A stretch of DNA of 64,000 nt from a bacterium (lineage in GTDB: Bacteria > Patescibacteriota > Minisyncoccia > UBA6257 > 02-FULL-45-10c), in the NCBI GenBank assembly GCA_030700025.1, contig JAUYKI010000017.1:2748-66747 (forward strand), read 5' to 3'. Made by a program: the position numbers and the translations under genes. Positions 6,094-7,722 of this stretch are shown in pieces. Under the pieces are notes generated by a model. That model saw only the letters and a program-made list of their open reading frames with translations. It had not been told where the DNA came from and ran no database searches. How positions within the stretch are numbered: position 1 is the first letter of the stretch; every line of letters starts with the position of its first letter.

Positions 6094-7722
6094 ATGTCTA
6101 AGTTCTATATCACTACCTCTATTGCTTATGTTAATGCCGCCCCGCATATTGGTTTTGCGCTGGAAGCGGTTCAGGCGGACGTAGTTGCCCGCTGGCATAA
6201 GCAGGAGGAAGTCTTCTTTTTAACCGGCACAGACGAGCACGGAGCGAAAATTGCCAGGGCCGCGGCCGCCTCGCGCGGCGAGGCGCCGCCGAAAGCGAGC
6301 CTCGCCACTGGCGGGAGCCTCGCCCCAAAGGGGCGGGAAGCCGACAATAAGTTAATAAAAGAATTTGTTGATCAGCAAGCAGAAAAGTTTAAAGCGTTAA
6401 AAAGCGCGCTTAATTTATCCTGGGACAACTTCATCCGGACTTCCGACCAAAAAGTTCATTGGCCGGTGGCGCAAGAAGTCTGGAAGCGGATTGCGGAGGC
6501 GGGCGATTTATATAAAAAAACTTATCAGGGGCTTTATTGCGTCGGCCACGAAGCGTTTGTTACCCAGAAAGACTTAGTGGCGGAAACCCCGACGCTAGAG
6601 GGTCGGGGCTCCGACCGAAGCGCCGGAGATGCCTTAGTATGTAAAGATCATAAAAAAGCCCCGGAGCTTATAGAAGAAGAAAACTGGTTTTTTAAATTAT
6701 CAAAATATACGAAAGATATTGAATTGCGAATAAAGAATGATGAATTACGGATTATTCCGGAAGGCCGGAAAAATGAGGTTTTGGGCTTGCTTAAGGACGA
6801 TCCGGAAGATGGTTCGGCAAGCTCACCACAAGACGTGAGTTTCTCCCGGCCGAGCAAAGACTTAACCTGGGGCGTTCCGGTGCCGGGCGATGATTCGCAA
6901 ACCATGTATGTCTGGGCAGATGCCCTCACGAACTATATTAGCGGTTATGGCGGAGTTAAAAACTGGGAAAAGCATCCGGCGGATATCCATTTTATCGGTA
7001 AAGATATTTTACGTTTTCACGCGATCATTTGGCCGGCGATGCTTTTATCGGCAAAATTGCCCTTGCCGAAAACTATTTTTGTGCACGGCCATATTTTGTC
7101 TGACGGGCAGAAGATGTCTAAATCCTTAGGCAATGTGGTGGATCCGTTTGAATTAGTAAAAAAGTATGGTTCGGCAAGCTCATCACAAGCTGGCACAGAT
7201 GCAGTTCGGTATTTTCTTTTGCGGGAAATTCCGTCGGCGGAAGACGGCGATTTTAGCTATGAAAAATTTACCCAGCGGTATAACGCGGATTTGGCAAACG
7301 GATTAGGTAATTTTGCGGCCCGGGTTTTAACCCTTGCGAGTAATTACAGCGAATATTTTACAATTCACGCTAACCCCCAGAACGTTCACGAGGTGGTTAA
7401 TGACAAAATTAAGGAAACCCAATTATTAGCTAATAAGAAAATCACGGATTTTAAACTTAACGAAGCACTAGAAATAATTTGGAGCTTAATCCATTTTGGG
7501 GATCAGTATATAAATGAAAAAAAACCATGGGAGCGAAAGGATGAAAAAATAATAGAGGCAAATGGCGTAGCGATTCACAGTTCGGTAGCAATTTTAAATA
7601 ACGTGGCGATTTTACTCCAACCATTTTTGCCGGACACCGCGGATAAAATTACCAAGAGCATCGTTTGGGAAGAAGGTAGGCTGGAAATCCAAAAGACCGA
7701 AAATTTATTTCCGAGATTGTAA
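6094..7722 (+). CDS. metG: Methionyl-tRNA synthetase.
   Basis: The class I N-terminal region through AAPHIGFA, the KMSKS motif and the anticodon-binding domain are seen. The zinc-knuckle region is degenerate, with one Cys only. Several low-complexity in-frame inserts are present. Confidence 0.9.
   Translation: MSKFYITTSIAYVNAAPHIGFALEAVQADVVARWHKQEEVFFLTGTDEHGAKIARAAAASRGEAPPKASLATGGSLAPKGREADNKLIKEFVDQQAEKFKALKSALNLSWDNFIRTSDQKVHWPVAQEVWKRIAEAGDLYKKTYQGLYCVGHEAFVTQKDLVAETPTLEGRGSDRSAGDALVCKDHKKAPELIEEENWFFKLSKYTKDIELRIKNDELRIIPEGRKNEVLGLLKDDPEDGSASSPQDVSFSRPSKDLTWGVPVPGDDSQTMYVWADALTNYISGYGGVKNWEKHPADIHFIGKDILRFHAIIWPAMLLSAKLPLPKTIFVHGHILSDGQKMSKSLGNVVDPFELVKKYGSASSSQAGTDAVRYFLLREIPSAEDGDFSYEKFTQRYNADLANGLGNFAARVLTLASNYSEYFTIHANPQNVHEVVNDKIKETQLLANKKITDFKLNEALEIIWSLIHFGDQYINEKKPWERKDEKIIEANGVAIHSSVAILNNVAILLQPFLPDTADKITKSIVWEEGRLEIQKTENLFPRL
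6270..6345 (+). repeat. GC-rich palindromic in-frame insertion inside metG. It is related to the insert in gatC.
   Basis: The segment gcgaggcgccgccgaaagcgagcctcgccactggcgggagcctcgccccaaaggggcgggaagcc encodes SRGEAPPKASLATGGSLAPKGREA. It shares aaag(g)gcgagcctcgcc...ctggcg...gggcgggaa with 60541-60600. GC content is far above the local average. Confidence 0.6.

Follow-up and report, generated by a model that had tools for sequence, protein, structure and literature searches.

Why do two genes of one bacterial genome carry, in frame, GC-rich segments that resemble each other? The question is raised by a 64,000-nucleotide stretch of DNA (the window, below) from a 98.9-kb contig of a Patescibacteria (Parcubacteria-like) metagenome-assembled genome (MAG), in which metG, the gene for methionyl-tRNA synthetase (MetRS), and gatC each contain such a segment. 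The original prediction held that a GC-rich palindromic mini-element invades other sequences here, open reading frames (ORFs) included, and this idea is supported by homologues that lack the inserts, by the hairpin folds of the inserts, and by a family that numbers at least 165 copies in unrelated places, mostly in frame within ORFs. It is probable, in our judgment, that the metG and gatC segments are sister copies of a short, non-autonomous selfish hairpin repeat, comparable with the Rickettsia palindromic elements (RPEs) and translated as a loop. We refer to this repeat as element A.

Resemblance between the metG and gatC segments

The window has a GC content of ~45% and a GC skew that is positive all along its length, and its MetRS has its closest named relatives in Harrisonbacteria. 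The two host genes, recognized as ORFs and by their Pfam families, and the element that each contains are as follows.

6094 to 7722, forward strand: metG, host gene, encoding MetRS of 542 amino acids
6265 to 6339, forward strand: 75-nt composite element in metG, encoding AASRGEAPPKASLATGGSLAPKGRE (MetRS residues 58-82), delimited by census and homologue alignment
60480 to 60800, forward strand: gatC, host gene, encoding 106 amino acids
60549 to 60593, forward strand: complete 45-nt double-hairpin element in gatC, GCCGCC caaaagg GCGAGCCTCGCC ctggcgaagcc GGGCGGGAA, delimited by pattern census, covariance model, and RNA fold

The sequence strings first quoted for the two genes lie where they had been placed and both sites are real, but their boundaries, given as 6270-6345 and 60541-60600, are better set, slightly wider or shifted, at 6265-6339 (75 nt) and 60549-60593 (45 nt). 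Both segments are in frame in real ORFs. In metG, the segment belongs to an island that is, as noted at first, more GC-rich than its host gene (6234-6347, GC 0.75 versus 0.46) and that is the longest GC-rich island of the window.

The similarity between the two inserts is above chance. Their local alignment scores 42, versus a mean of 20.1 (sd 3.6, maximum 36) for dinucleotide shuffles, none of 2000 of which reached 42, and the best match of each insert in the whole window is the other insert; the shuffles and this reciprocal best match rule out a chance or low-complexity similarity. Within the window, the 12-mer GCGAGCCTCGCC occurs exactly at 6295-6306 and 60562-60573 only, and with one mismatch it has four matches versus 0.40 expected, a number that 0 of 100 shuffles reach. 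This excess, with the copies found elsewhere, speaks against a motif confined to two sites at random expectation. The shared core is translated A-S-L-A in metG and G-E-P-R-P in gatC, which are different frames, and the likeness is therefore one of DNA and not of protein.

Architecture and fold of element A

The unit of element A has the form GCCGCC-(tip 1)-GGCGAGC / CTCGCC-(tip 2)-GGGCGGG-AA, that is, two abutting hairpins in 33-57 nt, and the minimal element of 33 nt is GCCGCCGAAGGCGAGCCTCGCCAAGGGCGGGAA. The description of the segments as palindromic holds insofar as they form hairpins, but instead of one palindrome there is a double hairpin, whose stem bases are conserved and whose tips vary. 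Hairpin 1 contains a bulged A (GCCGCC/GGCG-A-GC), hairpin 2 contains a T·G pair (CTCGCC/GGCGGG), and both irregularities are invariant in 28 of 28 aligned sequences. Because hairpin 2 is approximately the reverse complement of hairpin 1, element A can be described as an inverted pair of one module. As members we counted sequences with the blocks GCCGCC ... GGCGAGCCTCGCC ... GGGCGGGAA in this order, separated by gaps of 0-24 and 0-26 nt, and both the metG and the gatC sites contain the three blocks.

In the alignment of the 28 sequences, 98.8% of cells are paired, versus 39-54% after a shift of the partners by 1-3 columns. Covariation scores 0.090, versus 0.034 in shuffles, and 0 of 500 reach the observed value, in a control that ignores the relatedness of the sequences. 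The informative pairs are next to the tips, at columns 9-24 and 10-23 (C·G/U·A/A·U) and at columns 38-50 and 39-49 (A·U/C·G/G·C). RNAalifold independently yields the same two helices and the same bulge. The variable tips themselves lengthen the stems, by 2.4 and 2.3 consecutive pairs versus 0.57 and 0.51 for shuffled tips.

A covariance model built from the 28 sequences (R1) has matches in the window only in gatC and at 6296-6342 in metG. Two further sites that had been thought related are not. One is a GC hairpin at 27089-27133, in which a GCCGCCC/GGGCGGC stem surrounds two small hairpins and is itself inside a larger stem-loop; its sequence and architecture differ, and it goes undetected by R1 even at E<=10 with filters off. 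The other is the nested palindrome CCTGCCTGCCGGTAGGCAGG, an exact 20-mer near-palindrome found at 6007-6026 and 36659-36678, each time in an intergenic GC-rich island, where chance would give 0; R1 at the same setting gives no detection, the sequence is unrelated, and it belongs to another GC-hairpin family. Antisense in the ORF at 56119-57093 there is also a lone hairpin, TTCGCCC-gatagttacc-GGGCGGGAA (56532-56563, reverse strand), which resembles hairpin 2 only and which R1 scores at an E of 0.33, not significant. Isolated half-elements, which might have marked the ends of a longer parent, were essentially not found; matches to hairpin 2 alone are parts of full copies or of another family, TCCGCC..GGCGGAAA. 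Rfam contains no family that matches element A at the gathering score or at E<=0.5, and an intrinsic terminator is ruled out by the absence of a T tract after the element.

The gatC and metG copies

The gatC copy is made up of two parts.

60549 to 60567, forward strand: hairpin 1, stem GCCGCC/GGCG-A-GC with bulged A, loop AAAA
60568 to 60591, forward strand: hairpin 2, stem CTCGCC/GGCGGG with T·G pair, tip CTGGCGAAGCCG

This copy encodes AAQKGEPRPGEAGRE, residues 24-38 of GatC, between the first helix (HLAELARI.L) and EKLL. Its minimum-energy RNA fold consists of the two hairpins, which take up 84% of the ensemble (z -3.1), and R1 scores it at 53.5 bits (E 1.4e-10), the copy having belonged to the training set. 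We aligned the window protein with 19 of the 113 GatC homologues found, and all 19 lack the element, including the closest, P0122 and P0123, relative to whose DNA gatC shows a net gain of 36 nt. In a structure model, helix 6-27, loop 28-33, and helix 34-56 make up the N-terminal helical hairpin, and the insert is found at its tip; the GatC and MetRS models are of moderate confidence only (mean pLDDT, the predicted local distance difference test, 66.8 and 64.6). A search for population polymorphism at this site with a 23-mer flank gave no match in metagenome contigs. P0122 itself carries, near its N terminus, an in-frame palindromic insert of its own of 48 nt (L129, about 105-152; SNPSTGLRMDSEPSRT, with TTCGAC..GGCTCA..TGAGCC..GTCGAA).

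The metG copy is more complex, and three parts can be told apart in it.

6268 to 6284, forward strand: outer 5' hairpin GCCTCGC-gcg-GCGAGGC, corresponding to hairpin 1 of the homologue P0003
6285 to 6306, forward strand: second 5' arm and core, GCCGCC gaaa GCGAGCCTCGCC, most like gatC and the minimal family members
6299 to 6339, forward strand: best-scoring unit, GCCTCGCC act GGCGGGAGC / CTCGCCCC aaa GGGGCGGG AA

The composite, spanned by the MetRS peptide SLAPKGREADNK, corresponds to the 45-nt copy seen in relatives plus ~30 extra nucleotides (6283-6312) that resemble a second, minimal copy and are the part most like gatC; it contains an 18-nt quasi-duplication (GCGAGCCTCGCCACTGGC / GGGAGCCTCGCCCCAAAG). 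R1 scores it at 41.1 bits (E 9e-8) over 6296-6342, although it was outside the training set, and the unit at 6299-6339 folds as two hairpins in 91% of the ensemble, so that the expectation that both inserts fold was borne out. Seventeen of the 19 other aligned MetRS lack the segment. The remaining two, P0003 and P0005, have a 45-nt version at the same codon, which R1 also finds from outside its training set (49.5 and 48.4 bits). In the MetRS model, the segments with pLDDT below 50 include residues 63-82, encoded by the metG insert, as well as 170-177, 236-245, and 359-366, and these four coincide with the inserts that this MetRS has relative to its relatives.

The residues of the two segments are thus not conserved features of their proteins, since most MetRS and GatC homologues are without them. 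That the insertions are specific to this lineage is correct for gatC, where the window protein is alone among the 20 aligned, but not for metG, given the shorter copies of P0003 and P0005. In a neighbor-joining tree, the window MetRS joins P0002, P0004, and P0007, all with an empty site, at 95.5% bootstrap, and P0003 and P0005 are placed elsewhere; the scatter of carriers on the tree makes the distribution of the metG insert patchy. A single ancestral insertion is not favored by the tree, which does not group the three carriers but has weakly supported deep nodes. An ancestral insertion with several losses and a site that was hit more than once are equally plausible. The likeness of hairpin 1 between the window (TCGC-gcg-GCGA) and P0003 (TCGC-taa-GCGA), as judged from sequence, favors shared ancestry.

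A family of copies in Patescibacteria and beyond

Two scans extend the family beyond the window. One covered one genome per GTDB species with the pattern CGAGCCTCGCC-N(0-26)-GGGCGGGAA, that is, the core and 3' block only, and gave at least 119 loci; the other covered metagenome contigs with a pattern that also demanded the 5' GCCGCC arm and gave at least 110 more distinct copies. All census figures here (57, 110, and 165 copies) are counts among the matches listed and are lower bounds. Together, the scans hold at least 165 distinct copies with 151 tip combinations among them. The 5' arm, which the first scan did not demand, is present in 55 of the 67 listed matches in low-GC loci versus 5 of 54 in high-GC loci, and the high-GC matches of that scan look like chance. 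The 67 low-GC matches are mostly from Patescibacteria, which are ultra-small bacteria, with a few in MAGs labelled Elusimicrobia, Planctomycetota, Bacteroidetes, Brocadiaceae, and Woesearchaeota. A rough density, from extra copies counted around index copies, is 5-13 per Mb, and the window has 2-3 in 64 kb. Carriage by phages is ruled out by the absence of any strict copy from 2.9 million viral contigs.

Several features of the family point to copying. The 48-mer GCCGCCCCCGAAGGGGGCGAGCCTCGCCCAGAAGATTCTGGGCGGGAA is identical at nine places with distinct flanks (L132, L133, L159, L189, L210, and four in L193), which points to recent amplification; identical copies are found at several places within one metagenome. 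The four L193 copies lie at 3750-6410 in both orientations, within the 7.4 kb of that locus, are intergenic, and flank pth, lepB, and hisS; they are embedded in mosaics of other palindromic modules (CCCGCACC..GGTGCGGG, CCAGCACCGTCCCGC..GCGGGTCTGGTGG, and TTCGAGCGAAGCGAGAAA). Among the 165 listed copies, those of metG and gatC in the window are the only ones with CTGGCG in tip 2, and they are therefore sister copies within the lineage of this genome. Orthologues of both metG and gatC differ in the presence or absence of the element.

Behavior of element A inside genes

The copies listed in the two samples behave alike inside genes.

GTDB sample: at least 57 strict copies; length a multiple of 3 in 47; sense to antisense 31:6 in ORFs of at least 180 amino acids; phase 0 in 27 of 31
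Metagenome sample: at least 110 distinct copies; length a multiple of 3 in 94; sense to antisense 65:8 in ORFs of at least 150 amino acids; phase 0 in 62 of 65

ORFs of these sizes hold about two thirds of the copies in each sample; lengths are multiples of 3 in ~85% of the copies listed, sense outnumbers antisense by ~8:1 in long ORFs, and ~95% of the sense copies start in phase 0. The copies in ORFs are free of stops, and those that are clearly intergenic are of arbitrary length (37, 44, 46, 50, and 52 nt). Hosts confirmed by Pfam include TopA, YchF, RecG, RpoA, TIM, L19, PepA, GrpE, IF-2, and AtpG; by eye we also recognized UvrA, ThrRS, trigger factor, LigA, Pol X, NusB, RluD, and a PilB/GspE ATPase with two tandem copies.

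The peptide of a sense copy has the form AA...(GEPRP/ASLAP/RASP)...GRE, in which the middle block is read GEPR in 38 cases, ASLA in 23, and RASP in 4, according to how long tip 1 is. Given three reading frames for one core, conservation lies in the DNA and not in the peptide; the three frames, with the non-coding and antisense copies, rule out a conserved protein motif. Non-coding copies have no orientation bias relative to neighboring genes (10:7), and the sense bias in ORFs is therefore more likely to be a filter acting after insertion than a bias of insertion itself. That the element is translated is argued by lengths in multiples of 3, the lack of stops, and the location in loops.

Relation to known repeats

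In the account of Ogata et al. (2000) as summarised in PMC10969869, RPEs are ~100-150 bp long, confined to Rickettsia, and similar over their whole length. Going by that summary, element A is like them in being palindromic, lying in frame in unrelated housekeeping ORFs, giving a peptide that is translated in a consistent frame and compatible with the host fold, lacking a transposase of its own, and occurring in reduced genomes. It is set apart, by the same description, by its length of 33-57 nt and its hosts (Patescibacteria and others) and by its double-hairpin form, of which the stem bases alone are constant, the tips being variable.

The repetitive extragenic palindromic sequences (REP, with their BIME and REPIN arrangements) mobilised by RAYT (TnpA-REP) are GC-rich imperfect palindromes of 20-50 nt, preceded by GTAG and overwhelmingly extragenic (PMC8266576). 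They share with element A an imperfect stem with a conserved mismatch or bulge, the layout of an inverted pair (REP plus iREP), the lack of a target-site duplication, mosaics formed together with further palindromic units, and the absence of any linked gene from most copies. The L193 mosaics and the inverted-pair layout resemble BIMEs in particular, and the conserved stem irregularities, with the absence of a target-site duplication, resemble the substrates of RAYT (REP) and of TnpA of IS200/IS605 (PMC8266576). In contrast, element A has no conserved GTAG or flank motif (<=0.25 bit per position), most of its copies are intragenic and in frame, and no RAYT was found near any copy.

Classical prokaryotic MITEs (miniature transposable elements with inverted repeats) have terminal inverted repeats matching a parent insertion sequence (IS) and target-site duplications (PMC10969869). 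Element A is likewise small, non-autonomous, multi-copy, and symmetric by inverted repeats; it is quasi-palindromic, but neither a target-site duplication nor a parent IS was found for it. Similar repeats are also known in organelles. The GC42 clusters of yeast mitochondria are mostly intergenic and have an AG target site (PMC4478555), and the double-hairpin elements (DHEs) of Allomyces are organellar as well, according to the citation of Paquin et al. (2000) in PMC4478555. Common to these and to element A are GC-rich palindromes of ~40 nt in an AT-richer genome, stems that are far more conserved than loops, sporadic distribution, and a tendency to merge or nest; element A differs in being bacterial or archaeal, mostly in ORFs, and locked to one codon phase. 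Since it fails the defining test of each, we place element A outside REP, MITE, and RPE, and file it as a variant of palindromic selfish elements in ORFs that is a member of no named family. In the full text searched, on palindromic, in-frame, or hairpin elements in the candidate phyla radiation (CPR)/Patescibacteria and in bacteria generally, no description of element A was found.

Selfish repeat or alternatives

How such an element might spread can be sketched by analogy. Copies would arise by copying or transposition acting in trans, and the substrate recognized would be a folded single strand with conserved stem bases and a mismatch, as with REP/RAYT or the ends of IS200/IS605; a single-strand hairpin substrate of this kind would explain the absent target-site duplication. 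Insertions in essential genes would survive only if they keep the frame and add a flexible loop of Ala, Gly, Pro, Arg, and Glu (AA...GEPRP...GRE). The element would then be translated rather than removed, and would be selfish DNA that has no required function for the host gene.

Several observations weigh against a selfish repeat of this kind. In the DNA alignment with P0122 and P0123, the 45-nt gatC element seems to substitute for ~9 nt, so that it is not a clean insertion. Some sites are shared by diverged orthologues (IF-2 and the 'lkknad' and 'kklpgi' proteins), with tips changed in length, and many insertions must therefore be old and vertically inherited. A constraint from the host or from RNA could keep the stems conserved. 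The invariance of the blocks is partly an artefact of selection, since neither scan admitted deviations in the core or 3' block, nor the second in the 5' arm, although the 5' arm is conserved in the first scan, where it was not required. The phase-0 bias of ~95% exceeds what simple tolerance of the peptide would predict, with all three phases stop-free in the conserved blocks and their peptides similarly hydrophilic; strong selection on the peptide, or a preference of targeting or microhomology for GCN-GCN (Ala-Ala) contexts, are options for its origin. Nor was a mobilising enzyme identified. Transposase, HUH, and integrase domains were not found in the 59 window ORFs scanned (E<=1e-6), no gene family recurs in the flanks of 65 loci, and no tnpA-REP (Y1/HUH) gene was found in the window or in those flanks. 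The lone adjacent transposase, an ISNCY at L193 2367-3665, has unrelated AT-rich inverted repeats of its own, and there is neither a target-site duplication nor a conserved flank at the copies. A linked mobilising gene was rejected on these grounds.

Element A might instead be a structured RNA or DNA signal maintained by the host, such as a protein binding site, a determinant of mRNA stability or pausing, or an uptake or recognition sequence, and not selfish at all. Conserved stems with covarying tips, the strong sense bias in ORFs that non-coding copies lack, and the persistence of some copies at orthologous sites across diverged lineages all fit such a signal. But orthologues of one essential gene vary in carriage, the host genes are unrelated, a density of ~1 per 50-100 kb is much lower than an uptake sequence would need, some copies are antisense or intergenic, and neither a terminator-like T tract nor an Rfam match was found; this alternative seems unlikely, if the least so of those considered. 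On a different view, the element escapes translation because the mRNA loses it or the ribosome hops over it, for which byp elements in yeast mitochondria and the gap of T4 gene 60 would be models. GC-rich hairpin inserts of 33-57 nt in ORFs reportedly resemble mitochondrial byps in size and composition. Bypass or splicing is nevertheless disfavored by the diverse residues ahead of the element, with no take-off and landing codons that match, and by the kept frame: lengths are mostly multiples of 3 and copies stop-free in ORFs, with arbitrary lengths between genes. We rejected translational bypass on these points of length, frame, and codons, and hold it very improbable.

Independent local origin in variable loops, through slippage, template switching, or low-complexity expansion with convergence in GC-rich Ala, Gly, and Pro codons, draws some support from the quasi-duplication inside metG and from the other inserts that the same GatC and MetRS loops take in other lineages. 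It would have to produce 27 conserved bases in unchanged order, bulge and wobble included, at 165 or more unrelated sites in many genomes, an alignment score above all 2000 shuffles, R1 E-values of 1e-10 and 9e-8, and a core read in three frames; it is contradicted by the family census, and we give it a slighter chance still. An artefact of assembly or binning could be suspected given the MAG origin of the window and the difficulty of sequencing GC-rich hairpins, but an independent Logan assembly of SRR13727534 encodes an identical MetRS, more than 150 contigs produced by many studies and assemblers contain copies, and copies in ORFs keep the reading frame, so that we regard this as next to impossible. 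The translated, selfish, RPE-like repeat thus remains the reading that we prefer.

Other repeat families in the window and its relatives

This genome and its relatives carry several GC-hairpin families. In metG alone, three further inserts belong to two of them.

6580 to 6639, forward strand: family B double hairpin, CCCCGAC..GTCGGGG plus CTCCGAC..CGGAG, in frame (ETPTLEGRGSDRSAGDAL)
6808 to 6831, forward strand: family C insert, in frame, GGTTCGGCAAGCTCACCACAAG, encoding DGSASSPQ
7168 to 7191, forward strand: second family C insert, encoding GSASSSQA

The consensus of family B is CCCCGAC-loop-GTCGGGG followed by yTCCGAy-loop-GTCGGA, with CTCCGAC..GTCGGAG also seen. It occurs elsewhere at L007 1224-1273, L008 1656-1711, and L064 about 675 (reverse strand), in several MetRS homologues, and, in the GatC homologues P0124 (APTLSRGSDMEV) and P0161 (APTPKRDRGPDQSVG), at the exact site that element A occupies in the window; single CCCCGAC..GTCGGGG hairpins lie between genes at window positions 7991 and 8136. 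Family C, (G)GTTCGGCAAGCTCAyCACAAG, is read GSASSPQ, GSASSSQ, or PSASSGQ and is also present in leuS (14697-14714) and at L078 about 1211; the MetRS P0010 and P0041 have it at the same site. Another double-hairpin family, TCCGCC..GGCGGAAA, appears in other loci, and a double hairpin of the form CCAGCC-cga-GGCTGG then TCCGCC-tyg-GGCGGA-AA recurs in Patescibacteria (L048 about 1096, L061 about 3073 on the reverse strand, L101 about 379, L017 about 3496 on the reverse strand, and L030 about 2373).

AT-rich inserts lie in frame in leuS (13758-13838 and 14055-14069) and in a class II aminoacyl-tRNA synthetase gene (2960-2971). They are built from short repeats that also fill intergenic spacers (aaattccaaattccaaa, read KFQTPNSK, and gaaaagttaaaagt, read KLKVK), so AT-rich repeat families, like GC hairpins, are translated in aminoacyl-tRNA synthetases.

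Between metG and tatD there is a gap of ~880 nt (7723-8603) that has no ORF of at least 90 amino acids on either strand and contains several GC hairpins and ggtcctaaggtagcgaa; L005 has a similar gap of 1.2 kb. ggtcctaaggtagcgaa may resemble a universally conserved segment of 23S rRNA; there is no Rfam match and no blastn match to Escherichia coli genomes. The gap could be an undescribed structured RNA or a remnant of an rRNA or intron. A stem-loop, ATCCCGnTTAGAAGC ... GCTTCTAACGGGAT(G), is repeated at 37-71, 27070-27148, and 62451-62485 with a variable apex, one example being the GC hairpin at 27089-27133; at 69 and 62483, the ATG of a downstream ORF is overlapped by the 3' end of the stem-loop. 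Upstream of metG and of a pilin gene are the two copies of a 144-nt repeat (5804-5947 versus 44559-44702, 76% identical), and a 25-nt box, TGGGATTATTATTGGGATAGGTTCT, directly precedes four start codons (6068-6092, 20038-20062, 44807-44831, and 57122-57146); it may be a shared leader or a module of promoter and ribosome-binding site. A type IV pilus cluster (PilM, two T2SSE ATPases, PilC, prepilins, and a prepilin peptidase) at 37751-47806 is followed at 48077-55103 by three secreted-type proteins of very large size that have Kelch, LVIVD, and InlB-B repeats and a DNA periodicity of 144 nt.

Implications

Proteins of CPR/Patescibacteria are known for small insertions that have no explanation, and MAG annotations are rich in odd low-complexity peptides. 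If element A explains a share of such insertions, then an element that can be searched for by pattern and covariance model would improve gene calling, alignment, and phylogeny. Selfish DNA in protein-coding genes would extend from Rickettsia and mitochondria to a very large radiation. Element A would also be a tractable case of how hairpin repeats spread without a linked transposase and of how proteins tolerate inserts. Its invariant stem bases with bulge and wobble, its rewritable tips, and its codon-phase lock of ~95% are puzzles open to experiment.

More speculatively, and with a chance that we put well short of even, element A and at least two or three sister families may represent an unrecognised class of ultra-small mobile elements adapted to ORFs in genomes nearly devoid of intergenic space. 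Such elements would propagate through a hairpin-recognising enzyme, or possibly through host replication or repair; their palindromic tips would be rewritten at each event, for example, by off-center opening of the hairpin, and the codon-phase lock would come from a rule of targeting or of selection. If this were true, the housekeeping proteins of CPR and DPANN organisms would have in these elements a general supply of new loops.

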